A stretch of DNA of 63,549 nucleotides, the filler included, from Hausera hauseri (lineage: Eukaryota), in the NCBI GenBank assembly GCA_046269625.1. It is 11 parts of 11 records of this genome, joined end to end, with 100 filler letters (N's around TTAATTAATTAA, not from the genome) between each part and the next. Parts side by side here need not be neighbours in the genome. Positions count along the whole stretch, not along the records: positions 41,092 to 49,891 come from JBJURY010532120.1; 10 more parts are not named here. One strand, 5' to 3'. This document shows positions 17,141-62,500 of this stretch, piece by piece. Numbering within the stretch: the stretch's first letter is position 1; each line of letters begins with the position of its first letter. Position numbers and translations under genes: made by a program. The notes below the pieces were generated by a model, which had not been told where the DNA came from, made no database searches, and worked only from the letters and a program-made list of their open reading frames with translations.

Positions 17141-17689
17141 GTAAAAAAACAAGATAACCAGAAAAACACTCACATACCGATATTGTTTCGCATCTTCATG
17201 AAAGCATCAATCATGTGTTGATGCAATTACGAACACTGAGTTGGGGTTTTGTAAGATTTCGATTAACAAACTGTTCGTGGAGCTCTCGCATGTTCAGTTG
17301 TTTGCTACCAACGAAGGAAAAACCGTTAGTACCAGATAACCGAATTCGGGCCAATGTCGAAATTTTTATGGTGACTTGAGAAGTGAAAGATTCATTATCA
17401 ATACGAAAAAAGTGAAGAATCGTCAAGTTCTTCTCCAATTGCCGATAAAGATAGCATGTTGCTTACTGAAAAAACTACGCACCGGTCAATAAAGCCGAAA
17501 TAACCGATCCCTCGGACTCGTCCACGTCGATTGTTCTCCTGCCGTGCACTCCGCGGAAGTATCTGAACCTCAGTGAAGTCTCGGACATCGTCAATAGGAA
17601 TAATCCAGTCGAGCGAACATGTCAGATTCGGCAAAATCCGGCAGACGTCTTACCATCAGAGACATTTAGACACAGGTTGGTGAAGTTCT

Positions 17690-20205: not shown

Positions 20206-20529
20206 CTGATGCAATTCGTGAAAAATAATTCGGAGATGCTCATGATGTTGTTTTGTGGGGGTGGAGGCAAATAGTATGTCATCTATATATGTATGAGCAA
20301 AATCAAAGCATANNNNNNNNNNNNNNNNNNNNNNNNNNNNNNNNNNNNNNNNNNNNTTAATTAATTAANNNNNNNNNNNNNNNNNNNNNNNNNNNNNNNN
20401 NNNNNNNNNNNNTTAGGCAAATTGTCATAGATTCTCTCCTTCAGTTGAGTAAAAGTCGACAAAATCTCGAATACTATACTAATATTTTTGGATGCATAAT
20501 GGCATTGTTATCAAAAGAATATTGTCAGT

Positions 20530-20825
20530 ATGCCATACATCAACCATCGAAAATTCTCACCAAAGATCGTCCTTCGGAGTTACTTGGAGATTTTATTTTA
20601 ATGGATAATTTTACTGTTTGGAAACCTCGACAAATTATAAAAAGGGGTCGTGATCGTCAACGTGGTCGTAAGATGTCTAGCACAGGTGATGTGGAATTAC
20701 CACCACCAATGGCTCTACAAGAATTTACAATCGTTTTGCCATCGAATAGTGCAGAAAGTAGTTCGAATTCCGGTGCATTCAAAGCTGTTCAGGAATTAGT
20801 GAGATAAATTCAGTTGATGCAAAAA
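20530..20825 (+). pseudogene. TRIO: TRIO/Kalirin/UNC-73 RhoGEF fragment with an internal deletion
   Basis: LGDFILMDNFTVWKPRQIIKRGRDR resembles Trio PH1 QGELILQESFQVWDPKTLIRKGRER. It is fused in frame to VELPPPMALQE...AVQELVR, which resembles the more C-terminal Trio VPLPPPMAIQQ...AIEELVK. Confidence 0.7.
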
Positions 20826-21148
20826 CCCCAAGAACGATTACCCGATTCGTTATCATTACAAGGTAATTGTGATAGATATTCATATCAGTATTCCATCATT
20901 TAAAATATGGAACGATGTTAGTAATTCACATAAAACTTATACGTCATTTCAAAACTATGATGGTCCTTATCAGGAAAGTGCTGTTTTTTCTTCATCGAGA
21001 AGTGGTCCCGGTTTTCATGATTTCGATCGAAATGTAGGCAGCTACAGATCATCACCACCATCACAACCACTTTTACAAAGAAATTATTCTCCTGACGATA
21101 ATGAAGAGGACATTTTACGTAAACCAAATGCGCAATCAAAGAATTTCC

Positions 21149-24100: not shown

Positions 24101-26020
24101 AGTTCTGACAGTAAAACACTTCAAACACTTACTTCTCTCTCGCCCATTCGTCATTCAAACGGACCACAAGCCTCTCTTGCATATCATGTCGTTTAAACAG
24201 CCATCATCGAGGCAACAACGACACATATCATACTTGTCTACATTCAGTTTTGTTTTACAATACATTTCAGGCACAAACAATTTAGTAGCAGATTTTCTAT
24301 CAAGGTCGGTTGGCTCCATTACAGTTGAGCCAGTTTTCTCATCCGAAGTATTAAAGGCAAATTAACCGTCGGCTGACGTCCGTAGCCTTTTCCAACCCTT
24401 CGAAATCAATGATGGTATTGCTTTTGATACGTCGAATTCCGGTAATGAAAAGATCATTCTAACTCCACCTTTACAAAAGCCAGCCTTCCTTCATACGCAT
24501 TCACTGCATCATCCGGGTTCGAAAGCAACATTTCGCCTGCTCCAACGTCATGCAGTTTGGCCATCAATGCGCAAAGATATACAGGGCTGGGTCAAGGAAT
24601 GCGTAGCCTGTCAAAAATACAAAATCAATAAACATCTTAAACCGCCACTCTACCATTTTCCCTTTACGTCACGTTTTCATAAGGTTCATCTTGATCTCGT
24701 TGGCTCTTTACCTTCTGACAACGGGTATCAATATATTCTTCCTATAATGGATCGTGCTTCTCGATGGCCTGATTCAGCAGCCGATACATTTATAAAAATC
24801 TGTATCATTCGTTCTGGTTCCTCACATTACATAATAACGGATCAATGTCAACATTTTGAATCGGAACTCTTCAAATCACTTGTCAAACGCTTGGGGATAT
24901 TCCATTTTCATACAACACCATATCATCTTCAAGCGAATGGCCCCTTGAAAGGTTCCATCGAGCAATGAAAATTTCTCTAAAAATCTTGGCTGACAATCAT
25001 TGTAATAGGACGTTCATTCTACCATTTGTTCTACTACGGTGGCGCAACACACCCTCTACCACTACCGGTTGTGCTGCATCTGAGGCACTCTTTGGGACTT
25101 CAATTCGAGCTTTATTTGAACTTTCTGATCTTGGCGACAATCCCACAAACGAAAACGTTCGTGCATTACAATCTCAGTTCGTCGAGGTCAGCTCAGTCTC
25201 CTGCCGTCTCTTCAACAATAATAAATCGTATACTCCGAATAATTTATACACCGCCAAGTTTGTGTGACTGAAGGGTCAATCGCTTTCTGGTTTTATACCT
25301 CAATATGTTGGCCCATACAAACTGCTGAATCTCTTATCTCATACAGCTACCAGCTTACTCCAAGGTAAACCTTACAACTTCTACGTTTCGAATTTGAAGC
25401 CCGCTTTCTTCATTAATGACAATCCGGATGCCAACTCTACCTCAAATTCAAACTCAAATCCTAGTCCTTCTAGTCCTTCCTCGACCTTTCTGCATGACTC
25501 TGCACCGTAGCAGCAATCATTTCTCTGTCACACTCAATCGCCACCTTCCATCTCGCTTCCCTCCCTTTCTTCATCTGCACCACTTTCCTCACCACATTAC
25601 CAACATCGACTGTTTTATCACCTTTAATTGAATCGCTTCTTTTCCTTGATTTATACTCCTCAACACTCTTATTAGTTTCATCATGAGCAATACCACACAT
25701 TGAACCAAATAATCCCACAAAACTTCAATCACAAAATGTAACTCAACAGCCCACCTCAAATCAATCGTGTAAGGCACACAAAGTGACTTTTAGTAACTAC
25801 AGCAAAGAAAAGTTCTTTGATGGTACACAACGCCTGACACATACCAAAACCGAATGGGCACTAAACATTGTTCCTTTGTTAATTCATTGTTTTCATCTTC
25901 ATTAACCTTTTCATTCATTTTTACCTTTACATAGTTTTTCTTCTGCCACGGGGGTGATGTGGTTGGCGCAAATCTTATCCCCACCAAAATGCTGATGGCG
26001 TCATTCCTTCTCGTAATTAA
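21149..26020 (+). mobile_element. Ty3/Gypsy element copy B: near-complete internal region (partial Ubl, gag, PR, RT, RNase H, IN), PPT and start of 3' LTR; decayed
   Basis: FLIDSGA; TPFGLYKYIFMPFGL...YIDD; TTDAS...KPLEFFSQKL; TDHKPL; HHCC zinc finger; HLDLVG...ITDQ; GPY; PPT GGGGGTGA at 25950-25957 followed by TGT. Confidence 0.95.
22266..22306 (+). promoter_or_regulatory. -1 programmed frameshift signal (A AAA AAC TAA plus H-type pseudoknot); homologues at 19085-19125 and 47536-47576
   Basis: Slippery heptamer at the gag end. Stem 1 GCCG/CGGC and stem 2 CCAGA/TCTGG. Conserved in three otherwise divergent copies. Confidence 0.8.
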
Positions 26021-26800
26021 TTATTATGCCGATCTACGATGCAAGCATGTCAATGGCCAACAGAGCTTTCCTGATGTCTCTGCATATTGGTCTGTAAAAT
26101 CGTACGGAGTATGCATCAGAGAATGAAGAATAATCCACAAAAATTCATTGAATATCTTGTTCATTAGAATGATATACAGAAGTCTGAGCTGTTCAAAGTT
26201 CAATCCACATTGCCGAAAAATCTCTAAAAAATGAAGAATTAGACAAAATTCAAATATTCGCAAAAAACTGTGATACCATAATAGATGTGATCTCATCTTT
26301 TCGAGACAGACATTTATGAGCTTGGCCTTATTCAGTATATAATTATTGAAGACGAAGACTGGGATTTGGAAATAAGGTATAATTGCCTCCTTGGAGATAA
26401 TCATTCGGAAGTAAAATTCAAAAACAATATCTCCCTCCGTTATCTCAATCAGTACACAACCACGTACTACCTGCAACAGCCCAACAGATGGATTCTCATC
26501 ATGCTCACATTAACTCAAATTTACAAGATTGCAAAGCAATTCACCACAGACTGCCTAGCCATAATCAATTCCAAAAGCTGACGATCTCTAATGATATTTT
26601 GAATGAAATCTTGAATTATTATTATGAATGTTCAAATACTCCATCGTAACGGCTATTAAAGAAATAGTTTTACTTGACAGAAGCGATGTTTTTTAGTGTT
26701 TTATTAATATCAAATCATGTTTAATCGATTTTCTGTAATTGAATAATTGTTTTTTTGAAATAAACTTCTGTGTTTTGCTTCTTTACTGGAATTATAAAAT

Positions 26801-26831
26801 TGGTGTCGGAAGTGGAATTCGAACCCACGCC
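26801..26831 (+). promoter_or_regulatory. Extended tRNA-Leu primer-binding site (31-nt complement of the mature tRNA 3' end including CCA) after a U5-like segment
   Basis: TGGTGTCGGAAGTGGAATTCGAACCCACGCC is the reverse complement of GGCGTGGGTTCGAATTCCACTTCCGACA-CCA. AATAAA lies about 40 nt upstream. Confidence 0.85.
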
Positions 26832-27769
26832 AATTTTATAATTCCACACNNNNNNNNNNNNNNNNNNNNNNNNNNNNNNNNNNNNNNNNNNNNTTAATTA
26901 ATTAANNNNNNNNNNNNNNNNNNNNNNNNNNNNNNNNNNNNNNNNNNNNATCCCAAACCTCTGCCCATTAGCCAGCAGGTTTCCCTACAGGGCAGAAAAT
27001 GTAATAACTTATTAACATTGTCCATTTTTTCCGAATCTGGCAACATTTTATTTTACAAATACTAATTTTTTATTGCAAATTTGTTATATGTTATAAATAA
27101 TTGTTTTGTGTGATAAATGTATGTTTTTTTTAATGATAATTATATTAAAAAGACCTGATAATAAAGACTCATTGAATAAAGAAGTAGGAATCCCTCCATT
27201 ACCCCCAGCAACAGAAGAAACATGCAAGAGCATGTACTTCACAAATATATGCTGAATTTCCTATTTTTCTCCTGCATTTCAAGCTATATAGCTTATTGCT
27301 GCAAATTTGATGTATCTCTAACTCATCTGTGTTCTTTTTTTTCCCACATCTTTAGTTCTTTCTTTTTACTGGTTTCCACCATGCACTTTATGTGTATAGA
27401 CTTGTTTGGTTGTGCCCTCTTGTATCGTTCATTCTTTCCTCATGTTCCATCCAATGTCCTTTAAAGTCTATATATTAGAATCAACAACAAAACAGCTACT
27501 TGGTGGCACATGCTGATGGTGCTTTAGAAACCATATTATTATAATTGATATGGTTGGTAGAATTTCCGGTACGCCTTCACAACTGAGTGAACTGGGGTCA
27601 AGCCGGTCCTTTCCTCTGTGTTCAGATTTCTGGTCCAGGAGAAACTCCAGCATATTCCTACTAACCATTTCAGAACTGTGCTGGTTCACCAGATTTGTTT
27701 TGGGCCAGTAGTTGTGCAAAGGACTCAAATAAAAAAAAAAAAACAGTAACGACAACAGTTTCTAAGAAG

Positions 27770-31785: not shown

Positions 31786-32430
31786 ATCATTAGTTCCTCT
31801 GTTAAGGCTTCCGGTGTTATTTTGTGACTAAAGATTCCCTTCACCAACTGTTCGATTTTGTTAAAGTAGGCTTCCGGTTCTGCCGCATCCATTTTGTAGT
31901 CCAAAGCCTCACTCAGATCTCCGCACAGCATTGTGGGTTTTGAAAATGTTTGTTTTTCAACCGGTTTTGGTACCCTTTAACCTTCTGGCTCACCAGATAG
32001 TATTTTTCCTGTGCTTCTTCCGCCAACAAGCACAGGACCGCGGTTTCTCGACCCGTCTCTGACATCTTTATGAAGTCGAAGTATCTGTCGCATTTTCAAA
32101 TAAAGGTTTCCACGTTATCATCTCTCTGGAATTCTTTTGGCATGAATTTTTTTCGAAGAAGTCTCTTGAAGCGTGGTCACCATGTTAGTAGATCGGATCT
32201 CTACCATCCCGATCTCAACCTCACTTGATGATTGCAAAATAGAATTATCCATAAGAGATTTATTATTAAAGTTTGTATAACACTTATCTCCTTCACTCGG
32301 GAAATGAGTCTTATTTTCCTTCTTTTCTGAATTTCCTAACTTTCTGTTAGCTGTCTCAATTCATCCTCATAATAGGTAATGTTGATAGACGTTGATAGGT
32401 AGTACGAGAAAGTAGTTTACGAGACGTACA
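31786..32430 (-). mobile_element. LTR retrotransposon 5' end: LTR (about 32183-32430), PBS (32171-32182), decayed gag start (ATG 32143)
   Basis: Minus strand reads ...CTAACA-TGGTGACCACGC followed by MPKEFQRDDNVETFI*KCDRYF. AATAAA is present in the putative LTR. The outer LTR edge is uncertain. Confidence 0.65.
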
Positions 32431-33029
32431 AAATTGCCAAGTTTATAAACTTGTTGCATGGCGATTTGAATGCCTTCAGACGGTCAAACTTTTTACCTTT
32501 ATTTATGCGGATGGAATCATTTCAGAGTATGTAGTCTTGACTCATTTGTGTTTGTAGAAATGTAATTGCATATATAAAGTTGTTTGTGAAAAACTCTCCT
32601 GCTTTTTTGTATTTTCATTGACCGGTAAGAAAGTGCCAACTCTGAACATATTTCCTTACCATGAAACTATTTGTACGGAATTGTGTAAAATCACGCAGTG
32701 TTGTAATGCACAGTATACTGGCAAAAAATTTCTTTCGACATCTGAAAGTAAGGATGACTTGATTGCGTTTGTCACCGTACCATTTCATCAGCGATTCCCG
32801 ACCAAAAATATACTTAAGAAAGAATTTGGATGCAACTATGACCTTCGGATTAGGAGTAGCATTCAAATTTTTTAACACATGTAGTCTGAGCATATCGAAA
32901 ATCAAATGGTTTTGTTTTATTCGCTTGCAACAATTCGTTAACTTTCTCGGATATCATTTTAACATAAGGTTTACAAACATTTATATTGTTTAATTTTTTA
33001 TTTTATTGTTTCATCCACGGATATTGAAT

Positions 33030-35180: not shown

Positions 35181-36732
35181 AATAAATGTTTTTGTAAATT
35201 GTTTTGTATATTAATAAAACTTTTTTCGTCTCTTATTTTATTCATAGTAAATATGTACACTCCGAACATACCGTTACCTTAGAACATGTGTTTCATACAA
35301 TCACATGGTGGCACATTAGGAATACCCTATCTACTTTAATCTTTTTACATAGTGTAAACATAAAGTTTGATTTCACTCTTCTTTTGTATGTTCTTTAATT
35401 CTACACACAACTTTTCAACAGTATTAAAATAATCTACTGCAAAAAAGCGTTGAATGAAGTGAAGGTATCTGAACTAGTTACTTGAGGCATTTTCATAAGT
35501 GACACTTTGTGAAATTTAAACAAATATACCAAAATTTAAACAAAAAAATTTTTGCCGCGAAATTCGAATTTTTATAACTACCTAAAAAACATACAGTACA
35601 CATACTGTACACTTCATTCCCATACACACAAACACAACTGTATGTCTCCCATCTCCACTATATTAACCGCGCGTGTGTATCACTTTTTTCTACCCGATGA
35701 CTCATCCATGAACCACTTCGATTTTCCATCAGCAGGGGGTCTGATCTGGTGTGCTTACTTTTACTTACTAGCTTTATATTGGCTGTATTCTAGCAGAATT
35801 GTAACGGCATTTCACTCTAGCACGCGTTAATGATTTTATTATTTTTGTTATGATTTTCTCTTTTTGTTTACACGAGTTTAATAATTTCAACCAGACTGTA
35901 AAAAGTAAGAGATGTTGTGGTGCCTTCGTGCGTTGCGCCACCCTGGCATTTCGGATGGACACAATTAGGCACAGTAGCTTTGCCCCTGTTATCCGGGTAC
36001 TTGGGTTCGCTCTCTCGCCTCGGTGAATTTTGAGTGCAATTATAAAAACGTTCCGAAATTAAATCTATTCCGACTCAGTGGCATGTAATCTATTAATTAA
36101 TGAAAATCAACCGGAAAATTAAAGTTAACAACAAAACCTTCAATTCCCAAAAATAATGCCTAATATCAATCAGATACGAAATTATTGAAATTCGAAGAAC
36201 CCCTCATTGTAAATGGAATATTGGCGTTTAAAGACATTAAATTTAACCAGAATTTCAAAATGTCCTTGGGACCCAACCAAATATATTATTTGTTAGTCGA
36301 ATTCAAACGCCAACGACAGAGTATCAAAATATCACGTTATTGGATACAATTAAATTGTCTAGGCAATTAATAACTGACTTTTCTCTGAACAATTATTCTA
36401 CTGTCGTTCTGAGCAACATGCATGAGAAAACTGTTTAACGGGAATTTCCTTTCTTTTTCAAAATTATAATTCAATCGAAGATGCACGAAAAAAATTGAAT
36501 TTACCCAAATTAAAAGCAATTATTTTTATCCAATCAGCGCTAGAGGANNNNNNNNNNNNNNNNNNNNNNNNNNNNNNNNNNNNNNNNNNNNTTAATTAAT
36601 TAANNNNNNNNNNNNNNNNNNNNNNNNNNNNNNNNNNNNNNNNNNNNTAATTGTATTTCATTCACATTGAAATTAATTACATTTTTATATTATTTAATTT
36701 AAATCGAAATATTTGACGCTAATTTAATTTAG

Positions 36733-39700
36733 AGAGATGCAACAAAGAAACCGAAGTGAACTTAATCAGATTCTTGAATACGTCGAAATGTGGAAGACTG
36801 GTACTTTGGAATACACGAGTCTTGCCGAATCAACAAATATTGATATGGGATCTTATTCACCAGCATCTTCTATATCCGATTTATCGCGGGACACCAAAAC
36901 ATATTCCTCGGTTTCAACAATAACCGACGGAGTTGAAAGTGGAAATAAAATAACTCGGATTAATATCCCATGTTCTCACACTCCAAAGGACACAGGTGCC
37001 TTTGGAAAAAGCAATAATGAACTATATGTGTCTTGCACCAACATTGAAAACAACATGGAGCTTGAATCTCAATTGAGTTTTGATCAAAACAAAACGTTTA
37101 AATCTCGAAAACGGTTGCAACTAAAACCATTTTGGGATGGAAATAATTTACGAATAACTTACTTTGAAGTGGCTCCAGTTGTTGATGGATATTCTTCATC
37201 AGAAGAAGAAGCTCAAACCGTTGGAAGTGTTCAACGAACTGAATCCAGCTATCAGCATGACATGGATGGTAATCCTGTTCAGGACAATGAGGGCATAGTT
37301 TGCGAACAGCATGGAATTAAATATAATAACATTACATGTGATATAGATTTTAATGAGACAGCTGATCGCTGGACGTTGGATGAAACAGATTATGTTACTG
37401 ATGTTATACGCAAGGCTCAAAGTGATGGTTTACTGGATAATTTACAGACGGCATTAAATGCAGTATTAGACAAATCACAAATGACTATTCGGGCCGATGA
37501 AACAACCACATCAATGAAATCATATTCAACAAGTTGCCAGACTGATAGAATCAGAGATATACAGACGGTTTCTATTAAAAAAATAGTTGATGAAATTGCG
37601 GATCAAGACGAAGTCAATTTACTCATGAACGAAATAAAATCTCGAATTTTTGTTTCATCGGTTATGACTCAAACAGACCGAGTTCGACCAATAAACACAA
37701 TTTCCGTGAAAGAAATTGTTGATGACACAATAAGACGGGACGAAATGGCTATGTTAATAAATGAAATCAATTCTAGTCTTGTGAGATGTTCGACATCAAG
37801 TCAGACTGAAAGAGTACGTCCGATTGAAATAACAAACTTGAAAGATCTAGTTGAAGAAGCATTTTTGCAAAATGAACTTCCAATTCTTTTGACTGAAATA
37901 AATTCACACATACATCGAAGCTCTGCATCAGCTCAAACCGATAGAATTCGACCAATTCAGACAGTCTCATTAAAGGAAATAGTAGACGAGACCATTGCTA
38001 GGCAAGAGCTACCAATATTGATGAATGAAATAAATGCAATGTTATTAAAATCTTCGGTATCATGTCAAACAGACAGAGTTCGACCAATTCAGACAGTTTC
38101 ATTGAAGGATTTTGTAGATGAGACCATTGCGAGACAAGAGCTACCAATATTGATGAATGAAATAAATGCAGTGTTATTAAAATCTTCGGTATCATGTCAA
38201 ACAGATAGAGTCCGACCAATTCAGACTATATCAATGAAGGAAATAGTGGCTGACACGGTGTCAAGAAATGAACTACCTATTTTGCTGAATGAAATAAATT
38301 CAATATTACTGAGATCGTCAGTAGCAATCCAAACCGACAGAATACATCTCTTAGATACATCAAATGTTAGGGAACTGGTAAGAGATGCTATAAATAAAGG
38401 CAATCTTTCTGTTTTGATAAATGAAATAAAATCAACAATCATCTCTGAATCTGTTTCAATGGATTCTCAAACGGTTTCGGAAATGGCTCCGGATTTCGAG
38501 ACAGTTGTTCGAACAGAAAAGCGCTATTTAAGCAAGAGCACAGAAAACATTCGTAAATACGAAGAACGTAGTTCATATACTGATTATCCAGATAAGATTT
38601 TGCAAGAATTTGGAATGAGTGGCAATGTAAAGAAAACAATTCCAAAATTGACGAACGTTTTAACAGAAACATGCATGGAAACTGGAATGAAGGAATTAGA
38701 TTATGTAGAAGATCATAGGAGAATTGAAGTGGAGAAAGAAAGACTAACTGATACACTGATAGTACCATCAGAAAAATTGAAAACAGTGATAGACTGCTGC
38801 TCTTATTTCGAGATTACATCGAATTCTAATCTAAGTGAGGCAACATTCACAGATGGAAAAGAAAAGCCAACAGAAAAAGTGACTAGAATAATGGAACAAG
38901 AAGAAAAAGGAACGCAAACAGCGAAGGTAAAATGTGGCAATGAATTGACAAGCGTTTTAATTACTGAAGATTACAATGAAAAGCTTAAGAGGCAATTTAT
39001 CGATTCATTTTCATGTGCCGAAATAGAAACAATTATGACAGAATGCGAAAGCTTTTATAACCCTGAACTTATTGAAATTCGAGACGAAACCTTACAGAAA
39101 TTACAACACATTTCTTTTACAACAGATGAAGCAACATGCGTAGATTTCAGAAATCCATCAGTTTCAACTCAAACATATTCGGACATTTGTGAAGAAAAAG
39201 AGATGTCACAACCAACAGTGGAAAAAATACAGAAAATAATGGTACATTCTAGTAATTACTACGAAGTAAAGCAATCAGAAAAAAGCACACACGTCGAGAC
39301 ACTAAAAGACACCGATGTGTACAAACAATACGATACACAAACGAATGAAGCAGCTACTAGTACTGCTACAAATTTGTCAATGTTACAAACAAACCAAATC
39401 GAACTAGGGCATGAATTTATCGCACTTAAACAGGATATCAGCACGGACCACGCACTAGACATGGTTCATAAAAACGTTGCCACTGAAGAAAAAAACATTA
39501 AAACTGACAGTAGACAAGAATTGAAAGAAATAATATCCTATTACGAAATAAATAGAAAAGATATTAGCTTAGAAATAACAAAGAAAGAACATGTGGTGAG
39601 GCAGACAGAATCATCAGCAGAAGAATTTAAGCAAAGTATTGAGACAGGATTGGAAAGTAGTGGAGCTGTTGAGGTTGTCGACGAATGTTCGAGCTACGAG

Positions 39701-40102
39701 ATAAGCTGTTGCACTGTTGAGTGTGAAGTAATTGAACCTGTAGAAGACATATTAGAAGTGAAACGAGAAGTTGAAGAAGCTGAAGTTCCAAGCATTGAAG
39801 ACGAATGTGTCAGTAGTGAATTTGTTTTGGAAGAAAAGGGAACAGCTGTCGAATGTAACATGGAGGAGAGTAGCAGTGAAATGAAGATTAAATATTTGGA
39901 TGAAAGCAGTGATTGGACGGAAAGAATCAGTCATAGTGAAGTAGTAGTTGAGACTGAAATGGCATCACTTTTAAGCATATTGACATCATCCGAGGTTGAG
40001 TATTGTACAGTGGAAATGGAAATGGAAGAAAAGAAGATGATCAGTGACGAAAGTGGTCACGAGACAGAGACGACAATTGTGGATTCTCAGAGTGACTTTG
40101 AG
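36733..40102 (+). CDS. Large internal exon of a host gene for a giant acidic, repeat-rich protein of unknown identity
   Basis: 3.37-kb uninterrupted ORF. Acceptor TTTAATTTAG at 36732 and donor GAG/GTAAAA at 40103 (phase 0). AT-rich flanks. Confidence 0.85.
37520..38475 (+). repeat. Coding tandem repeat, about 7 x 132 bp (44 aa)
   Basis: Unit is approximately SSVSCQTDRVRPIQTVSLKEIVDETIARQELPILMNEINAMLLK; two units are nearly identical. Confidence 0.95.
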
Positions 40103-40228
40103 GTAAAAGAAATGTTTACTTTATGTATTTTTTAAAAAATAGTTGATTAATTTTTTTAAATATTGTTGAATATGTAATTTAAATATTTTAATTTTATTTG
40201 AAATGTGTTTCAATCTATTTTAATTCAG

Positions 40229-41091: not shown

Positions 41092-41600
41092 TTCATGCAT
41101 TACCGATGAAATATTCCATATTCCTCAAGTCCAACTTTATTGTCAAAGTAATTTCACACATTGGAATCTGAAGATCACCACATTTCCTGGATTATATTTA
41201 ACATCGTATTTAACCATGGAAATCTTCCAAGTTTTACGAATCGACATTGACAGCAGTACGACCGTTTTACGGAATTTTAACGCATTTTCTTGTTTTCCTA
41301 GTACGTACTTCTTGTGAAAATTCTTTATTCTCGTCGACGAACATCAAGTTTGGAAACTAATCTCTATGCACTTACGATTATTCTCAATCCATTTTTGTAT
41401 TTTATTCTATATTTTACTATACCGATATTTACTCTTGTTTGGTGTTGATCTTTACTATCAGAATTTTACAGAGTTACGAAAGTCAGAATATCAATTTCAG
41501 TATGATTTCGGATGATTCGTACGATATCAGTCAACACAATGTTTTCGTACATTATTTCCAAAATTAGCGATACTTCATTTACCAACGACGTTGAATAACA
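41092..41600 (+). pseudogene. ALG10: ALG10/DIE2 alpha-1,2-glucosyltransferase N-terminal fragment, decayed
   Basis: DEIFHIPQVQLYCQSNFTHWNLKITTFPGLYL matches the family signature DEIFHIPQAQxYC...WDPxITTxPGLY. A later YFTD motif is present, with stops and frameshifts. Confidence 0.85.
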
Positions 41601-41892
41601 AACTAGTGCCGATGACGTTTAAAAATTTTTTCTTTGTTGTTTAAATATTGTATTTATGTTAGCGACAGTTTAAAAATTTTTAAAATAAATCGATTTTTTA
41701 GACATTTTGATTTTAGCCCTTTTGTCGTGGTGAATTTTTTTGCAATCAATCTATCTTTTGTGGTTTCGTTCGTTGGAATTAACAAATTCAATATTGTCAC
41801 TATTTATTATAGGAATTATTTTCATATCCGTTATTCCGGCAGTTTAAAGTTGTATTTTTGGGTTTACTATCCCAGAATTTATACCTACAAAT

Positions 41893-41910
41893 TGGTGTCA
41901 GAAGTGGGAT
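41893..41910 (+). promoter_or_regulatory. Canonical 18-nt tRNA-Leu PBS following an LTR/U5-like AT-rich segment (about 41600-41889, ends CA)
   Basis: ...CCTACA-AAT-TGGTGTCAGAAGTGGGAT; complementarity stops at exactly 18 nt. Confidence 0.9.
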
Positions 41911-41958
41911 GATTTTACTATAGTATTTTCTTCGTTATCAAATTCAGAACTGCACAGC

Positions 41959-42560
41959 ATGTCTATTTTAATTCTTGAAGATGGAGATTTTTCATTCAGT
42001 AGAAGTGTATGCAAATAATCAGTATTTGTTACGAGAAACGTTTTATGCACTTGTTTGGAAACTTATGACGAAATTGTTAATAAATATAAAAATGCTGCTC
42101 AAAATATCAGATCAATTCAAGATGATGCAGGTATTATAAAATTTTGTGTCAATGCAACAGACTTAAGCTATTTTATGTTTGAATGTGAATTCGAGTTAAT
42201 TCTTTTTAATTTTCCGCATGTTGGTGGAAAAAGCAATATTAGCTTCAATAGAAAATTGTTTATAAACTTTTTCAACAGTATTATAGGATCCGGTTTGCTT
42301 ACGAGTAATGGTTCTATTTGTGTCAGTCTCTGTCGAGGACAAGCCGGAACCCATGTTGATGTTTTAGATAGAGAATTCGGTAACTCATGGCAACTCGAAG
42401 AAATGGTAGCACAGTCAAATTGTTTTATTTGATGTTCGCCAATTCAATTCCGATCTTTACCGAACTTATATTCCAACTGGTTTCAGGTCTGAGGAAAAGC
42501 GGTTTGAATTAGTCGGTTCTCGGACTTATGAATTTGTTGACTATCAATCATCGGATAAGA
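41959..42560 (+). pseudogene. FDXACB1: FDXACB1 / DUF2431 (BMT5-like) methyltransferase N-terminal domain, frameshifted; may continue to about 43020
   Basis: MSILILEDGDFSFSRS, VNATDL, ILFNFPHVGGKSNISFNRKLFINFF, VSLCRGQAGT...NSWQ. Confidence 0.85.
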
Positions 42561-43059
42561 ATAACCTCACTGAAACATTGAACTTCGGTGGCAATTGTTA
42601 CTGGGTATCGTCATGGATTGGCAAATGGATTCAAATGCATGATGCTGTTAGGATGGATTGCATTAGCGACTATATCGTCGGCCAACTGTGGAAATTACCG
42701 CAATTTAAGGATTGTAATTCACGGGATTGGTGTTACGTGTTCCAGGACAGTTATCAAAATTCGTATGGACTTATGAAATACGATAGCGATTGTTTATCGA
42801 ATGAGATTGATGTTGATTCGATCTCTTTTTAATAGATAATCAGAAAATCAATGGATACCGTTTTTCGTCTCTTGTTCACCTGGGCAGCAAATTGTTCAGA
42901 TGTTTCATGAAATTGACGAAGGTCTTTGTGATTTGCCGGTGTTTTCTGTCGGACTCTGTTTCTCCAAATCTTTGACAGATACGTCCAAGTCTTGTCAAAA
43001 ATTCGCTATAACAATGAGATGGAGATGAGAATGAAGTTGTTGTAGATTCCAATACGTCA

Positions 43060-44990
43060 TACGACGATTATTCCGTCGAATATTTGCGCATGCATGATAC
43101 TGAAGTGACGTCCTGCAGATGGACGATCGTAGACGATGTGCGTCGTTTGGTTTTAAGTGTAGGGTACAAAAATTCTTCGATTATTCGCGAAAGTGGATGG
43201 TGGATCCGAAACATAAATCTCCTTCAAAAAGTCATCGAAAATGTAGCAAAAAACGATTCCCAAAAATCCAAGAATCCCATGGACTCGGCAATATTTTATT
43301 TGTATATGAGAAAACAGAAATTGCTTTCAAAGCTTTTCAAAACGAACGATAAGCCACATAAAAATTTTTTTTTGCCATAGATTTTTCGGCAATTGAAAAC
43401 AAAAAACGGGCCATGGAACAGGCATTCAAAATGCGCAGTAAACGGTGCTGTGGTCATGCAGTTGCTTTGTTTCTGTTGTGTAATTTGTTTGCCGATGCGC
43501 TGTTAATTTGTATGCACAATCTGAAGGACATTCAGTTGGCACTCGTTATATATTGATTGTACGAAATCCATGTATCGAGGGAGAACAAACATTATGAGCT
43601 CATCATTAAGAATAATGCTGTCAACAGCCACGATCCCTTTATCCCTAGCATGGGTTTCTGGATGATGGAGGAGTACATGAAATCTTTCGAAACTCTTATG
43701 GAAATCGATGTCAAATGTACTACCGAATCAACGGTTTCCAAATCAACATTCAATGAAACCGTTGTGTTTACGTTTTACAATTTCCTGAAAACACTCCCTG
43801 ATTAAAAAGCAAATGCATCAATGCTATAAAGAAATCAATAAACAACAAACACTGAACAAAATGGAAAGGCGACTGTTTTTTCGAACGGCCTACATTTATT
43901 TTAAAATAGTTTCCCCAGATTTGGATTTGGAGGTTTTGTCGAAATTTTCAGAAAATAAAGAAATTCAATCGGACTACAATTGTAATATTAAAGGGGATAA
44001 AAAACAAGATGAAAATGACATCTTCAATATTTTCACCGGTCTAATTGACTCGGAAGAAACCGGCTCCACTCTGTTTAAAGTGGATTTCGATTTGGGTTTG
44101 GACGTAAAATCCGAACCGAAATTTGTTCAAGATCAAAAGGCAGTTGATTGTTTAGAAAAGGATCTCGACATCATGTGTTTACAATTTAAATTTGATTTGT
44201 CTAAAGCTAATTTCGGAAGAATTGTGTACTCTTGCATCTGGACTCGAATCTTGCGGGTCCCAATTGAGATTTTCATTGTACAATTGGGTGGAAAAGGAAG
44301 TTCGAGTATTGCAATACATGTGTAAGTATTCGACTCATTCCGATTATTCGGACACGTCGAATGGACTCGTCGATTTGTTCAATGGAATGTTGATGTAAGA
44401 AAACTCCGAGAGTCGTCGATTGTGGCTTAATGCTAATGAATCTCTGATATTGAGTCTTTACAGTTTCTGTTCTTTGCGTAGCTCGAATGCCGTCGGACCT
44501 GCCGCAATACGAATGGAGTTGCTCATTTTGATTCAGGAACTCCAGGGAAATTTACGGAAAAGAAACGATGTTTTTAAAATGTTACCTCTCGATATCAATT
44601 TGCCATTCATCAATTCGGCTCTTTCGGCAGATACCGGACTCTTTATAACTCCCATTCAATATCTTAAAACGTTCGTTTATGACATTGTTGATCGAATCAG
44701 TAGTTTTAAATGTCCGACCCACTCACAACAATAGATAAATTTACTCATGAATCAATGCCAGGCCCTGTCGGCTTGTCTGTTTCAGTGCTTATCGAATTTT
44801 AATTTTGATAAATATTTGAACATCAGTGACAATTCCACTCAACGCCGAATGAGGCAAACTCCATCCAGTGTCGTATTCACAACCGAAAGAGATATTCATC
44901 TATTATCGAAACAGTTATCCGAAACATTTTACCGGACAACATATTTCCGAATTCCGATCCTTGGAAATGGCCAGAATCTAAGTGTAATCC
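43060..44990 (+). pseudogene. DMXL: DMXL/Rabconnectin-3alpha (Rav1p_C region) intronless internal fragment, decayed
   Basis: GWWIRNINLLQKVIENVAK...PMDSAIFYL, LKDIQLALVI, ERRLFFRTAYIYFK...LEVLSK, CLKLISEELCTLASG...LRFSLYNWVEKE, FCSL...RMELLILIQE, ALSACLFQCL, all in DMXL order. Confidence 0.92.
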
Positions 44991-45149
44991 GTTGAACATC
45001 GGCAGCAAGTACTAAGTAATAGTACAGTCATTTAAAGAAAAACCATGCTGGAATAAAATAATTTTACTCGTTAGACATTTGAAAACTAAGCAGTCTAAGA
45101 GTGTATGACCCTTTCAAGTAAACAATATCGGAAATAAACTTCCGAAATT

Positions 45150-45700
45150 CAATAAAGATTTTCTATCAATTGCTACTGAATTATGCGGCTATTATCGTCC
45201 ACAAAGGTCAATGACAAAACCAATTGATATTTCACGCAAAAACGGTTCCTCTGCGGAATATTGATTTTGCTCACTGCCGCCTTGGAAAATGGTGGAGTCT
45301 GTCCTGACTTTGAAAACATTTTCATGAAAATGTGGTCACAACGAAAGAATTTATTAGACGACAAACACCAACTGGCATTTATTTACAAAACTATTTTTAA
45401 AGCTGCAAGTGATATGCTTTCAAAACGTCTCATTGTCATCGGTCCTGGTAGACTACCATATAAATGCCACTCATCTAGCAGCGAACATTCCAATTCACCT
45501 GTGCCAGTTACATCTATGTTTCCCGCTGTCATTAGTAGCACCAACAATAGTGCGAGTAGTTCGTCAATAATCGACCCCATATTTAGCAGTCAGCATCTGC
45601 TCATCAGTCGTTTAAATTCGCACATTTCGAAGTGGACCGTAAAAATCGACGAAGATAAACAATCAGTCACATCGAAACCAAGCGTTTTACCGGCATTTAG
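45150..45700 (+). pseudogene. Unidentified host-like coding fragment
   Basis: A 165-codon open frame with a protein-like N-terminal half, lying between the DMXL and NUP98 fragments. Family not recognised. Confidence 0.35.
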
Positions 45701-46062
45701 CAGCTTTGGTGTGACTCCAGCAACGACACAGTGTCATATTGTTTCCTCAACAAGGTAGTTTGGTAACCAACAGAAGCTAAAATATACAACGTTTGGTACC
45801 ACATCGAACTTATTCGGCAATGCGACGAATAAACCAGAATTATTTGGTTATTTATCAACAACATGCTACGGATTCGGTGCAAAGACATCATCGACATTCG
45901 GTGGGTTTGGTGCCGGTCAACAAATGGGCACACCGATTGTGTCATCGATGCCATCCAATTCAACGACCATCAATATCGGTAATCAGGGCGATTTCTTTTT
46001 GCAGCAGCAGAAGATTCTCAATTCGATACCTCCACGACCGTATGGCGTTAGTAATTTGTTCT
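45700..46062 (+). pseudogene. NUP98: NUP98-like FG-repeat fragment
   Basis: Clustered FG motifs (TFGTTSNLFG, ELFG, GFG, TFGGFG) followed by QQQKILNSIPPRPYGVSNLF, resembling the Nup98 post-FG motif QQxxxL...P(Y/F)GDSPLF. Confidence 0.7.
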
Positions 46063-46094
46063 TATTGAATGTCATATTGACAGTCTACACTAAA

Positions 46095-49000
46095 TTGCTG
46101 AGGGGAAATTCGGGTACCCCGCATTTTGCTGCCCGCCCCGCCAAGGCGGAAATCCCGACCGCCAACCTTGCGCCGGTCGGTCGAGGGGCACCTTCGATGT
46201 CGGTCCCAAGTCACGCCCCCAGGCCCACCACTGCTCCCATCTCCGTTTTCTTTTTTTATAACAACATTCACATACACCCTCCATACCACACACCCACACA
46301 TTCCCACACTTCAGACCCACATTTCTTTTTTCCTTGGTTCTTCAGACTTCTATCTCACTCTAAACGGCGCTATTATACACCTAAATAAAACTTTACCTTC
46401 TCTTTCAAATCATGCCTGCCTCCATATACATCTCCGTATCCGTGGTGGAATGAATTCCCCACCAATCACTGACACCACGGATACAATCACCATAAAAAAG
46501 TCAATACCCATTCTCTACTACACCAGACCAAATCATCCACCTATTTTAACCGACGCAAACTCTTCCAACAAAAACCCAGTTCATACTTCAATACATTGCA
46601 CAGACTACTTCATAAATAATGAAAAGTCTAATAAAACGTGGCTTCACTTCCACCTACTCTGGCTACAGTCTAATGGTATCACAGACTCCTTATATAAAGC
46701 CCATAGCTTACTCTATCTTCTCTCAAAATCCATAAAATCCTCAATACATAACTTGCTAGACATTTTTCAACACCCTGACCCTTATACCCAATTATTCGAC
46801 GCTGCATTACAACAGACCGAATTTTCCATTGACTCTATAATGCAGCGTTTCCTTAACGAAAATGCACTGGGGACACAAAAACCCAGCGACTTCCTACGCA
46901 CCTCGTTAGCACACTTGCGTACTCTTGGCGTCACTAAGGACACTAACCCGGATCTTCTACGCCATTATTTTCTGAATGCCCTATCTATCCAAATCCGGGC
47001 CTTTTTACCGTGGTGGGAGACTCCGCGCAGCTTGACAAATTGGCCGAATTGGACGATAGGACATACTATGTCCTAAACATAAATTTGCAACCCGTAGTTT
47101 CCACAGCAGTTGCTGCCAACGACATACAAACAACTATAACGCACAAAGAACAGCAGCTAAATCAGCTACGTGCTGAAAATATTGCATTGCATGCAACTAT
47201 CAACAAAATAAATAATAAATTAAATGAACTGTCTTTGTCCCGACGAGGAGGTTTTGCCGTTTCCCGTATCCGTTCTACGTCACGAAACCGCTCACCATCG
47301 CCTGCGCGTTCGTCGATATGCTACTACCACAGCAGATTCAACACAAAGGCTCAGAAATGCTGCCTGGGTTGCCAATTTTATAACCAAAAGTTTTCCTCAG
47401 ACACCGTTGTTTGCATTTATCACGCGAGATTCAAAAATCAAGCACGTAAATGTATCCCTGGCTGTACCTTCAAATCCAACAAGAACGACGGACATACTGC
47501 CTTCACTTCTCACAGTCGTCCCAGTTCATCTTTCCAAAAAACTAACTTTGCCGCCAAAGGTCACGGCAAACTCTGGCAAAGGCACTCTTTCACATTCTGA
47601 CCGCCGACACATCTCTTGATGTCTTTACTCTAAAGGCTGCAATCACTGCCCATACACCTCAATCTCTTGACTTCCTTATTGATACAGGGGCCGCAATTTC
47701 TCTATTACCGCAAACATTTCCTACACAAAATTCTCCATTCAAACTTAAGCCTTTATATACTGCTTCAGGCCAGCCGCTGTTTATCTTGGGCACGGCTACA
47801 CTGTCTTTCACATTACCAAATTTCTCTACATCTTTCTGCTGGACGTTCACAGTCGCTAACGTCCAGTCGGCAATCCTAGTATCTGACTTTCTCTCACACT
47901 ATAACCTACTGGTTGACTGCAGCCAGCGATTTTTGAGGAAAGGCACCGTTGGCGACATTTCTGGACATGTAAATAGCGTTTCGACTACCGCGCAGTCGAC
48001 CGTGAGGTGGAAATTAATCTTAAAATATCAACGATTAATTCAAATTTTCATAATAATTATATTCGTAAATTTTTAAACAATAACACTGATATACGATCGA
48101 GATTTGATGTCGATAAGTGTGGTACTGCCACAAACATTGTTCCATTCAGAGAAGTAATTTTATCCAACGCCATCTTTAATTCACCCATCTTACATCAAAT
48201 ACCACTTCACTGCACATCACCTAACAATTCACAAATTGCATCCGCTACCACCCAAATCGTTGCACCACTTTCACCGAATCTTTCACAGCTACCTACAACG
48301 TTATAGCAATTAATCAACAAATTATGTCCACGCGTACTTAAAAAAGATCGTACTTTTACTCCTGCCAACAGCACCCTACACCATATAGTCACACAGCATC
48401 AACGTCCAATTCGCCAAAAGGTACGGCCTCTGTCACCTCGCCGTAGATAGGCCGTAGAAGACGATTTTCTCGATCTAGAACGTTCCGGCATAGTACGCTG
48501 TTCTAAATCTCCTTGGTCATCACCGTTAAATGTCGTACAAAAAAGGACGGTACCTTTAGACCATGCGGTGACTACGGACAGCTGAATAACTTCACTATCA
48601 TGTACGCATATCCTTTACCACTCATTAATGATATCTTGCATCGCCTTAATTCAACCACCATATATTCAACCACTGATCTAGCTAAAGCATACCATCAAAC
48701 ATCGGTAGCACCCGAAGACATCGAAAAAACCGCAGTAACTACTCCTTTTGGCCTATACGAATATCTATTTATGCCATTCGGTTTGCGGAATGCCGCACAA
48801 ACTTTTCAGCGGCACATTGATTCCATTCTTTCTGATTTCTCGTTTGCACATCCTTATATTGACGACATTCTAGTCGTTTCATCTTGGGCCAAACAACAAG
48901 AAGAACATCTTCGAGCAATACTTAAACGTCTCCACCACCATAATTTACAAATCAGTCTTGATAAATGCAAATTTTTCAAAAAACGCATTAACTTTTTAGG

Positions 49001-49891
49001 CCACGTTATTACACCAGACTGCCATTCTCCCCAACCATACCGAGTCGAAGCTCTTAAAAACATCCAGTTGCCACGTACGACCACCGAAATTCGTAGCTTT
49101 CTTGGCACACTCCACTTTGCACATAAATATGTGCCATATTGCTCGGAATTAACAGCTCCATTCGCACACCTAATCGGCGGCTAAAAACATCAACCAATCC
49201 AATGGACATCTGAATTGGTTGACAAATTCGACAAACTACGTGACGGCATCAAAACCGTAGATATTCTAGCCTTTTCCAAACCTGATGCAGAACTTATCCT
49301 CACTACAGACGCCTCAACCACCGCAGTAGGCGTTGTACTCCACCAAATCTAAAAGGGAGAAAACCAACCACTGGAATTTTTCTCCGCAAGCTAACAGCAC
49401 CTGAAACTCGTTATTCCACGTTTGATAGAAAACTATTGGCAATCGTTCTCGCTCTCAAACATTTCTCACACTTACTCGTCGCTCGTAATTTCACTCTACA
49501 AACTGACCACAAGCCTTTACATAACATCATGGCCATGAAACACCCCTCCACACGCCAAGAGAGACAAATATCATACTTGTCGACATTTAATTTCGATACT
49601 AAACATATCAACGGGGTTAACAATTTATTTGCTGATTTTTTATCGAGGTCGGTTAATTCGATTAGTTTTTCTCCGATTTTTACGCAAGAACAACTTCAAC
49701 AGAACCAGCCACCTCAAGACGTGCTTAAGTCTTTTAAATCTTGCACAATCGTTGACGGTGTGGCTTTGGACACCTCCAAACTAGGCCATTCCGTAATAAT
49801 TCTAGCACCTTCATTGCAAAGACAAGCATTTCACCACGTGCATTCATTACACCATCCTGGTGCTAAAGCCACTTTTCGTCTCCTCCATCGA
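46095..49891 (+). mobile_element. Ty3/Gypsy element copy C: Ubl-gag with two CHCC motifs, PR, RT, RNase H, start of IN; cut by the contig end
   Basis: CYYHSRFNTKAQKCCLGC and CIYHARFKNQARKCIPGC; FLIDTGA; YIDD; TTDAS; TDHKPL; HSLHHPG. Confidence 0.95.
46246..46449 (+). CDS. Ubiquitin-like domain (ends LRIRGG) in frame with Gag, copy C
   Basis: ...SSDFYLTLNGAIIHLNKTLPSLSNHACLHIHLRIRGG|MNSPP... is continuous with the capsid region in ORF 46126-47076. Confidence 0.75.
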
Positions 49892-59588: not shown

Positions 59589-62500
59589 ACACCGCCAGAT
59601 CTAGATGTTATGATGAGACCTATGAGGTATTTGGTCACGAGACTTAGTTAAACAATTAATTTGGGCTAGACCTGAAAACTTTGAAGGAAATTTACAATTA
59701 GGCCAAGATTTAGAAATGGCGCTTGATAGATACGCCAGACATAATGATAGAAGTGATCGAAATAATGATCGAAATGATCGTAACGACAGAAATCGAAATG
59801 ATAACCCTGGAAGAGAAGATAGACGATTTATGGGTAAGAAAAATTATGGGAACCGAAATAATAATAGCAGTTACAGAAATGGTGGAGGTAATAATCATAC
59901 GAACAGATCATATTTTAACTGGGATACAAATAGAGGAAATTATAAAGGCTCGAATTACTCGAATCAAAATAACAATAACCAAAATAATGATAATCGACGA
60001 AATGCAGATAATGCACAAGGTTTGTCAAACCAATTTAATAAAAGTATAAATAGATCAAAGTCACCGGTGAACGAAGACGGTCGACAAAGAGTCGGCAGAA
60101 ATGGAAACTTGGTTTGTTTCACTTGCGGTAAGGAAAGACATATTTCATGGTCATGTCCAAATCCGCGTAGCGTTTAATTTACGGAACCAAATAAGACTAG
60201 TATAATTAGAATCAATGAAAATTTAGAAGCAAAGTATGGTGTTCGTGGAGACACAGGCACTATCATCGACATTCAAGACTTAAGAAAATTTCTAGATGCC
60301 CAGCCGGAGACTAATAATCTACAAATTTTGATGGCCAGAAAAGAATACGGAGATAAGCTGAGACTACTAGAAGTGTATCACGGTTTGGCAGAACCAGAAA
60401 CTGACTATGAGCATGCGATAGCACCTAAGCGAATTGATATGACACAAAAAAGAGTATCCCGTCAAGTTACAAACCATCTGATAAACCAGGCACATCAACA
60501 GCAGTCGACTTAGATGCAGAGCCTGAGTTCACAGTTAAGAAAGTAGATAAGTCTAATGATGATGATACTGCAGAAAAGGAATTTATAGAGCCACTAATAC
60601 TTAAGATTACAAAAAATAGAGGTCGTAGTCCTTCCTTTAAAACGAAACGTAGAAGTCGCTCACGCTCCAAAGTAACTAGAGAGAAAATTGAAGAAACAGG
60701 AAGTCCGAACATCGCTGTAGAAGATGATGTGGACCATAGTTTGAATACACCAGAAATTGGTTCACTCACACCTGTCGGAGTGGTAGAGCTTAGTGATAAA
60801 ATTAACGAGATTTGCCCACGTCTCATTAGTGAGGTAGAAACGGAGAATACTGATGAATTCGATTTAAAGAAATGGAAAGTTTGACGTTCGTGGAAATATG
60901 CCGATAAGTTAAACAAAATGAGAATTAGATCCCATAATCCAGAGATATTGCAGCGAAATTTAGAAAGGCTTAAACAGATTAGCGAACAGGTAGATATATC
61001 CGGAAAGGAACAACAGTATGCCGAGAGGTTATACAAAAATTTGAAACTATGTAGCGAAGGGAAACTCGCCGAAGCAATCGATTTGAGACAATATGAGTAG
61101 GTATCACCTGAAACATTGTCAAAATGGAAGTATGAATTGGAGTCTTGGATCAAAAGCGGAGTACAATTTTTAGAAGGATAGAGCAAAAATGAAGTTAGAG
61201 TCGACGCAAAAGTCACTAAGGCCCAAACCCTATTGACAACCTTGGAAGCAAACCCAAAACTTAACAGGGTAGTCAGTAATCTGGAACGTATGATGGGCGA
61301 AATTCGTTGAGAAATGATCAATCGGCTTAGGAAAAAACCGGTTAACCACCGAAGCAACATTGATTTAGAGATATTGGGTATAGATCCAGTATATATTTCT
61401 CTCTTGATGGAGATGATAAAAATCGCACTTGCTACGGCCAAACAATATACAAACCTAGAAAATCGAGTTAAGATAGAAAATAAAAAGCGAGCACAGATTT
61501 ATAGTTTGAAAAACCGAATTGTCTCCAAACAACGAAGAAATTAAATGTGCAATAAAAGCCTGTATTATAGAATTTAATGAATATAAGGACGAGTTTAGTT
61601 ATGTCGGTCGTATTATGAATTTCGTAAGAGGGCCGGACGATGAGTTAAAAGATGCATATAAGATGCTAGATAAGGCTATAATGGCCGAGCCAATTATCGC
61701 AAATCAATTGTCGGAGTGGTCCGAATTAGTAACACGACTAAGCAGGTTAGTAAAAGACCGAAAAAAAGAATTTCAGCAAAGTGAGCCAATGGTAAAGAAT
61801 CAGTTAGAAGAAAGTGCACATGATTTAGGCACAATGCAAATAGAAATAAACATTCGTAATCAATTCGAAGCATTACGACGATTAAAATTTATGAAAAAGA
61901 AATAAGAAGCGTCCATACTGGAGGAGATCTATAAATTGGTCGAGGAGACGAATTTTAGAGAAAAGCGGAATACATTTACGATGTCAACTCAAAGTTAAAG
62001 GTTGCCCGACTAGAAGGAGTACAACACTTAACGGGAAAACCTATCGACGAGATATCTGTACAAGACATTGAAATCTTAGACATTTGTCCGGGACATCGAG
62101 TCACCATAACGGACGCGATAACATTTTTGCACAAACCACAAGAATAGAAGACCGGATCAGATCAGAATTTCCATATCGAGTTGACAAAAATAAGAGACGA
62201 CCCACATTTTAGTTTTCAGGAACACAAGTTCGTGAAGAAATTGTCGGATGCAATGGACCCCGACTCAAAAGTTATAAATGAGATGTATGAGTTGGCCTAT
62301 TTATTGGTAGAAATGGCAGAAATTAATGACGAGATGATGAAGCAATTGATGCCAAAAATACAGAAAGTAGAAGAAACATGTATCAAAACGAAATAAAGAG
62401 CAACGAAGCTAGATAAACTGGAGAGAGAATTCGAAATTTACCGATACAAATATGTTTTTGCGGAATCAGAAATCAAAAATAAGCGAGAATTCGTACAAAG

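Follow-up and report, generated by a model that had tools for sequence, protein, structure and literature searches.

Ubiquitin-tail precursors are host genes beginning at Met1, and FUBI-eS30 contains FUBI as a diverged spacer. Captured ubiquitin or ubiquitin-like inserts are described for cytopathic pestiviruses (bovine viral diarrhoea virus, BVDV, Osloss, CP1 and CP Rit), in which host hydrolases free NS3 with an authentic N-terminus, according to the accessible parts of the two papers (PMC8310069, PMC13517609). Long terminal repeat (LTR) elements can take up sense-strand mRNA pieces by template switching, as set out in the accessible text on LTR-mediated retroposition (Tan et al., PMC5131818). 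Here we describe a locus of Hausera hauseri (assembly GCA_046269625.1) that resembles each of these systems in part. It lies in a stretch of 63,549 nucleotides (nt), referred to below as the window, in which 11 contig parts are joined with N spacers between them, and along which all positions are counted. The locus, copy C (41092-49891, JBJURY010532120.1), is by its sequence a decayed copy of a Ty3/gypsy retrotransposon, and it carries a ubiquitin-derived domain (ubiquitin-like domain, Ubl) in frame with the Gag capsid.

The element is like other Ty3/gypsy elements (Metaviridae) with a DUF7041-type Gag in its capsid family, in the order gag, then protease, reverse transcriptase (RT), RNase H and integrase, and in having a primer-binding site and a purine tract. 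It differs from them in the in-frame ubiquitin-derived domain with an invariant Gly-Gly before the capsid, and in a long leader with host-gene pieces. As in the pestivirus inserts, host ubiquitin lies inside a polyprotein, right before a viral protein. As far as the accessible accounts go, however, those inserts are sporadic, recent and near-identical, whereas the domain described here is a fixed feature of dozens of clusters, has diverged to about 20-30% identity and stands before the structural protein of a DNA-integrating element; the cut, which is known there, is a prediction here. The ubiquitin fold, the Gly-Gly joint and the in-frame tail protein are shared with the Ub-eS31/eL40, FUBI-eS30 and polyubiquitin precursors (PDB matches), from which the present Ubl differs in being usually internal (Met start in 3/32 relatives, and none in the main frame of copy C) and in belonging to a mobile element.

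The locus resembles LTR-mediated retroposition in that an LTR element contains incomplete pieces of host mRNA in sense orientation, sometimes from more than one gene. The retrocopies in the accessible part of that paper (PMC5131818), which mentions no ubiquitin spacer, lie between discontinuous element parts, whereas here the pieces precede an intact gag-pol layout and the Ubl separates them from Gag. The 2A/StopGo peptides of retroelements (bioRxiv 10.64898/2026.09.24.754024) likewise split polyproteins, but act on the ribosome, and the OTU and Ulp1 of Ginger/Helentron elements (PMC2836005, PMC6431247) likewise touch the ubiquitin system, but as proteases and not as substrate, in the available portions of these reports. 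No ubiquitin-Gag fusion of an LTR retrotransposon was found in literature searches aimed at such fusions, or in the accessible parts of these three sources and of PMC3383448 and PMC12440569; a Repbase or GyDB entry could exist. The ubiquitin-Gag fusion is apparently an undescribed variant of a known element class.

The ubiquitin-derived domain and the Gag frame

A single Ty3/gypsy group is represented in the window by three decayed copies, each on its own contig: A (15531-20312), B (20413-26849) and C. Their gag-pol regions are mutually 66-67% alike, and in this group Pfam identifies RT, RNase H and integrase, arranged as in gypsy elements. In copy A (17698-18988, plus strand) the Ubl is open to 18054 and ends in Gly-Gly-Ser, followed by a break at 18138-18149 and the capsid frame. 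In copy B (20818-26849, plus strand) a frame of 141 codons extends into the first strand of the Ubl, where there is an ATG; most of the Ubl is absent, and gag-pol follows.

The first-pass annotation had proposed one uninterrupted frame in copy C from the Ubl through Arg-Gly-Gly-Met into the capsid. A frame from 46102 to 47076 (plus strand, as are all copy C features below) is indeed free of stops. It contains the Ubl (46239-46449, about 72 codons), which ends in IRGG with the Gly-Gly at 46444-46449, then Met (46450) and a 46-residue linker modelled with low confidence (46450-46587; predicted local distance difference test, pLDDT, below 50 for residues 81-118), and then the helical, DUF7041-type capsid (46588-47013) with WLHFHLLW at 46639 and LGTQKPSDFL at 46867. 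It is not, however, an intact Ubl-Gag open reading frame: there is no ATG before the Met at 46450, and there are two breaks. The first lies near 46274-46278 and is placed there because three of the five longest aligned contigs cease aligning at 46274; pLDDT is 45-63 over residues 1-20 of the model. The second lies in Gag near 47010-47050. The rest of Gag (46947-47600) is in another frame, which together with many stops in pol marks copy C as a dead copy.

The same annotation had pointed to an overlapping frame as a better match to the first strands, and to a frameshift that may hide the true start. This frame is present (45759-46388, 209 codons, ATG at 46197) and contains an FG-repeat stretch, a Pro/Ala linker and what are likely the first two Ubl strands. 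The FG repeats, presumably nucleoporin-like, have no Pfam or PDB match. Compared with the two closest relatives, P0001 and P0002, the overlapping frame matches the first strands better (scores of 50 v 36 and 26 v 21). Against copy A it scores lower than the main frame (22 v 31), and it is preferred by 17 relatives against 15 among 34. A frame break does conceal the first strands; a start at 46197 or close by is unsupported, and so is any start at the Ubl, which is usually internal. The middle base of the ATG differs in 83% of the aligned depth (29 contigs), so that this ATG is largely private to copy C and is not the start of the family.

Contigs of one sequencing run, with a share of 0.43 and possibly the source of the stretch, were aligned to copy C, giving a depth that is not a copy number. 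Summed depth climbs from 90-230 upstream to 2,900-9,500 from about 46100, and long contigs start aligning at 46100-46105, which makes the Ubl part of the repeated core. The core begins with a Pro/Ala-rich linker (46100-46238), and the 209-codon frame passes into it from the leader. Aligned depth is highest at the joint, reaching 36,000 over 46428-46450, whereas in the middle of the Ubl it is 500-800. Only two rows have indels at 5% or more, both 3' of the joint and each in one or two contigs.

Relatives were found by searching a profile of the copy C and copy A segments against 1.84 billion protein representatives, which gave 92 matches. A Gly-Gly within 60 residues of the capsid occurs in 39 of the 42 capsid matches that have at least 60 upstream residues, against 9 of 316 background windows. 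One of the 39, P0074, has its Gly-Gly by chance and was dropped, leaving the 38 relatives counted below, distinct clusters at 50% identity among which related rows are not independent; the search profile included the Ubl, and this set is therefore enriched for it. P0014 and P0024 have the Gly-Gly but fewer than 60 upstream residues and were left uncounted, and P0034, P0039, P0050 and P0061 were left out for want of a capsid. P0039 is an unrelated polyprotein of 2,277 residues with three ubiquitin-like units ending in RLRGG. The Pfam scan covered 48 of the 92 matches, among them all 38 relatives. The relatives are known as gene calls and not as DNA; calls of this kind may join exons or pass over frameshifts. 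Viral and metagenome contigs were scanned five times for DNA of the relatives, and no locus was confirmed. Word-based protein searches gave nothing useful, only two relatives of P0066.

Several lines of evidence identify the domain. A profile made from the relatives only, run against 2,474 stop-to-stop pieces of the window, finds the copy C frame at E 8.5e-9 and the copy A frame at E 1.3e-8, the next hit being at E 0.018. AlphaFold2 models both segments as a β-grasp: copy C with a TM score of 0.72 to ubiquitin and a VIA Z of 9.9 over residues 1-72, and copy A with pLDDT 88, a TM score of 0.8 and a Foldseek E of 1e-5 to ISG15/ubiquitin. In the ESM atlas the segments adjoin ubiquitin-family clusters (0.92 for A, 0.88 for C), which we treat as leads only. 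Among the relatives, Pfam finds ubiquitin in 14/38 at E ≤ 0.01, and four of these pass the curated cutoff; in P0018 and P0066 ubiquitin and DUF7041 both exceed their cutoffs. A profile of 30 divergent rows, with the near-ubiquitin ones removed, has ubiquitin as its first PDB match (single-domain E 1e-8 to 1e-11). When the two window segments were themselves searched by sequence against Pfam and the PDB, the results were negative or weak: Pfam matched neither, and the PDB gave polyubiquitin at only E 0.55. An RNA polymerase chain (8k43) also matched the copy C segment (E 0.002), but was rejected on the fold and profile results.

It could be argued from these weak direct searches, and from the lack of an in-frame ATG before 46450, that the region is an untranslated leader with a chance ubiquitin-like ending and that Gag begins at the Met after Gly-Gly. 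The fold and profile tests contradict this, as do the 38 relatives with an in-frame Ubl, Gly-Gly and capsid, 33 of which have no Met after the Gly-Gly; the idea is refuted at the level of the family, and we give it scarcely any credence. The order shared by the relatives and the fold tests likewise show that the segment from Ubl to capsid behaves as coding sequence and not as an untranslated region, as first proposed. That this is a real and conserved ubiquitin-Gag fusion we regard as virtually certain.

The earlier question of the donor, whether ubiquitin, NEDD8, FUBI or SUMO, is answered as ubiquitin by the profile of divergent rows and by P0104, whose Ubl is identical to ubiquitin at 58 of 75 positions, which points to ubiquitin at least in the P0104 clade. 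Two further near-ubiquitin relatives, P0029 and P0049, fall inside a capsid clade with 100% support (in a quick tree of 70 rows), where the other Ubls are only 16-34% like them. This nesting suggests, as far as the tree goes, either a fresh capture that replaced an old spacer or very uneven rates. P0029, P0049 and P0104 all have near-canonical ubiquitin among divergent Ubls on short capsid branches, and repeated re-capture of host ubiquitin is possible. The Ubl is mostly lacking in roughly one half of the capsid tree (27 of 70 rows); four rows with a Ubl fall in that half. Among 30 clusters looked up, the only named capsid relatives are from the tick Ornithodoros turicata, and these are Ubl-free.

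DUF7041 is found in 28 of 37 aligned rows. The copy C capsid itself has no Pfam match; it is 46% identical to that of copy A, and its fold resembles the PEG10 capsid-like domain (Z 8.4). The rest of Gag consists of a coiled coil, an Arg/Ser-rich stretch and twin Cys/His knuckles, the first at 47319, and P0001-P0005 share the same Gag tail. The two knuckles that end Gag (Cys-x-x-His...Cys...Cys, 47319-47460) are unlike the usual CCHC spacing and are common to the relatives. The decayed pol (47546-49891) has a protease recognised by motif only, RT (RVT_1, E 1.9e-27), RNase H (RT_RNaseH, E 5.7e-16) and the start of an integrase (Integrase_H2C2, E 0.085), and ends at the contig end; in copy B, RT is followed by Integrase_H2C2 at E 3.4e-15.

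The Gly-Gly joint

The Ubls have kept their hydrophobic core and tail, with Leu at position -4 in 31/38 relatives and Arg at -5 in 26/38, the Gly-Gly itself being present by the selection of rows. The Leu8-Ile44-Val70 patch and the near-invariant sequence of ubiquitin proper are lost in the divergent rows: Ile44 is kept in none of the 37, and is present only in the near-canonical P0029, P0049 and P0104. Read from these columns, the domain is one that retains the fold and tail recognised by proteases and has lost the surface recognised by receptors of the proteasome and of the endosomal sorting complexes required for transport (ESCRT).

The residue after Gly-Gly is restricted. In the 38 relatives it is Ser in 16, Met in 5, Asn in 4, Ala in 4, Gly in 3, Thr in 3, and Asp, Val and Gln in one each; in copy A it is Ser. 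Arg, Lys, His, Phe, Trp, Tyr, Leu, Ile or Pro never occurs at this position, although these residues make up 32% of the linker and occupy each of positions +2 to +6 in 9-12 of the 38 relatives (nominal p 4e-7, which is overstated since the rows are related). Proline after Gly-Gly blocks deubiquitinases. Such a restriction would be expected if selection acted on an N-terminus that becomes newly exposed. It also fits the suggestion that the residues exposed in copies C (Met) and A (Ser) are stabilising under the N-end rule, in that no primary destabiliser occurs among the relatives, with six Asn, Asp or Gln as exceptions. A Ubl-less Gag isoform made from the ATG after the Gly-Gly, raised in the same annotation, may exist in the copy C subfamily, but it is not a trait of the family, in which Met is present in so few relatives. 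Gly-Gly-Met is moreover the junction of polyubiquitin, so the Met of copy C need not be a second start. On these patterns we consider it quite likely that the protein is cut after the Gly-Gly.

The fold is well kept, and engineered Gag-ubiquitin fusions can substitute for late domains in budding, according to the accessible text of PMC2958808. The Ubl might on these grounds stay attached to Gag, either assisting folding or acting as a permanent ubiquitin signal by which receptors of the ESCRT pathway or the proteasome are drawn to the particle. In that same text the budding effect needs Leu8 and Ile44, the second of which the divergent rows have lost, which makes an uncut ESCRT signal unlikely; a permanently attached domain also leaves the invariant Gly-Gly, the preceding Arg-Leu and the restricted +1 residue unexplained. 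We regard this alternative as improbable.

Equally doubtful, in our estimate, is the proposal that the released Ubl is the main purpose, its free Gly-Gly end being conjugated to host proteins or tying up ubiquitin enzymes, so that silencing or degradation is blunted and the release of Gag is a side effect. Arg72-Leu73 and the Gly-Gly are kept, the fold persists under a rapidly diverging surface, and near-canonical ubiquitin reappears inside a divergent clade, all of which would fit. The column counts, however, show no evident shared new surface, and with a long translated leader the freed piece would be a large fusion. This proposal is compatible with the Ubl acting as a spacer.

The leader and the start of translation

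Upstream of the Ubl, copy C has a long leader that contains pieces of host genes. A motif resembling a primer-binding site (41893-41910), which we take to be of the tRNA-Leu type, lies 4.2 kb upstream of the Ubl; it includes an exact 15-mer match, found twice in the window against 0.08 expected. Before it is a fragment of the ALG10 glucosyltransferase (41093-41314; Pfam DIE2_ALG10, E 2.9e-21, profile 5-70 of 391), which from its position only we place in a presumed 5' LTR. After it come a BMT5-like rRNA methyltransferase domain (42019-42429; E 8.4e-24, profile 26-147 of 168) and a Rav1p_C fragment of the RAVE/DMXL type in two frames (43018-43553; E 6.1e-9 and 4.7e-8, profile 385-436 and 448-508 of 640). 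Thus Pfam supports four host pieces from three genes among 55 frames scanned on this contig, all partial and all on the plus strand. Of the leader frames, the seven longest have 111-178 codons and are likewise all on the plus strand, while none on the minus strand exceeds 92 codons. A frame of 176 codons (45228-45758), in the same frame as 45759-46388 with one stop between, has a tyrosine phosphatase match below the Pfam cutoff (Y_phosphatase, E 0.031), which is unconfirmed.

Similar arrangements are seen in the relatives. In 11 of 32 relatives, predicted frames extend 116-628 residues upstream of the Ubl and pass through a peptide encoded by the primer site, against a mean of 0.16 and a maximum of 2 in 1,000 shuffles; downstream there is none in 11,557 residues. 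All eight members of the P0006 cluster have this peptide at residues 2-34. Host domains above the Pfam cutoff precede the Ubl in 5/38: Rrp44 and CNOT1; histone H2A; 5'-nucleotidase; SelO and dynein; and cohesin SCC3. The top match, P0001, has in order an Rrp44 piece, the primer-site peptide, a CNOT1 piece, the Ubl and Gag. It has a 98% identical twin, and its 996 residues lie on a contig of 3,554 bases, which leaves little room for introns. Several relatives (among P0099, P0100, the P0006 cluster and P0018) start with, or carry near their start, Met-Val-Ser-Glu-Val; an ATG there overlaps the junction of LTR and primer site, and it could be the real start in some lineages.

We propose that translation would start upstream, in the LTR or the leader, and that a long protein would traverse a variable region that gathers pieces of host mRNA through template switching. 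Cleavage after the Gly-Gly by a deubiquitinase of the host would then free Gag with a fixed and stable N-terminus, whatever precedes it. That the Ubl is translated from upstream, as a spacer, is on balance favoured, and the proposal as a whole, a cleavable ubiquitin-derived spacer before Gag, stands in our judgement a little better than even.

The main rival remains an N-terminal Ubl with its own start. The Ubl would be the true N-terminus of Gag, with a nearby non-AUG or variable start, and would be cut after Gly-Gly as in the precursors of ubiquitin and ribosomal proteins; it would boost expression and set the first residue of Gag, the host fragments would be passengers in an untranslated leader, and the long proteins would be run-ons of the gene caller. 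It predicts the same signature of cleavage. In its favour, 6/38 predicted proteins start inside the Ubl or within 20 residues of it, the ATG of copy B lies at the first strand, and the leader of copy C is ridden with stops. Against it, Met is found at the Ubl start in only the 3 of 32 relatives noted above, and not even in P0029 and P0049, and the upstream frames run on, through the primer-site peptide in the 11 relatives and close to the start of the protein in the whole P0006 cluster. We hold it to be unlikely, but the most serious of the alternatives.

Several observations weigh against a cleavable spacer translated from upstream. The leader of copy C is full of stops, with only 209 codons open before the Ubl; no paired LTRs or direct repeat are seen for copy C, the contigs ending inside the elements; and the assignment of the motif at 41893 to copy C is presumptive. 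Upstream continuity in the relatives rests on gene calls, 21/32 relatives are without a primer-site peptide, and 33/38 are without a Pfam host domain upstream. The Ubls are 14-34% identical to a near-ubiquitin relative, with Arg74 kept in 12/38, and given this divergence and the loss of Arg74 and Ile44 many deubiquitinases might refuse the domain. The mostly Ubl-free rows of the capsid tree also show that a DUF7041-type Gag can do without a Ubl.

Neighbouring features and wider meaning

The window contains further features. Copy B ends on the plus strand in a purine tract, a presumed 3' LTR and a primer-binding motif at 26801; in this region (25950-26849) the tRNA-like complement of the motif extends over about 30 bases. 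The hairpin of 60 bases with which its contig terminates is probably an artefact of assembly. A repeat at 15621-15793 (plus strand) was considered as the LTR end of copy A and rejected, as it belongs to another element. It is 79% alike to 32183-32354 (minus strand), and the shared stretch has ...AACA at its end. What comes next on the 32-kb contig, a primer-site motif of a different kind and a frame resembling gag, marks this stretch as the LTR end of another element. Just upstream of that end is a weak Beta-Casp host fragment (32618-32953, minus strand, E 3e-4), and a second family in the genome may, judging from this fragment, also have host pieces in its LTR.

An open frame of 1,135 codons (36728-40135) has repeats of 44 residues (132 bases) and no Pfam match. 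The entire 9.5-kb contig at 49992-59488 is a degenerate CT-rich simple repeat. A fragment of recombination endonuclease VII (2224-2592, Pfam E 4.7e-6) possibly belongs to another mobile element, and a 600-base repeat with 68% identity occurs on two contigs on opposite strands (10177-10776 and 60051-60647).

We suggest tentatively, as a possibility that we rate somewhat below even, that these elements represent an undescribed broad Ty3/gypsy lineage in which ubiquitin serves as a host-cut insulator before Gag. Such elements would remain autonomous while their LTR or leader collects translated host mosaics, and the spacer would be refreshed from host ubiquitin. If the joint is cut, this would explain how host coding sequence can be captured ahead of gag without the element disabling itself. 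If the cut is made by a host enzyme, the maturation of Gag would depend on the host ubiquitin system, which would be a new control point over transposition. Together the Ubls of the 38 relatives, whose likeness to ubiquitin ranges from 77% down to about 20%, offer a natural series for testing how much divergence deubiquitinases tolerate. If the insulator proposal is true, the elements would be standing engines of exon shuffling.

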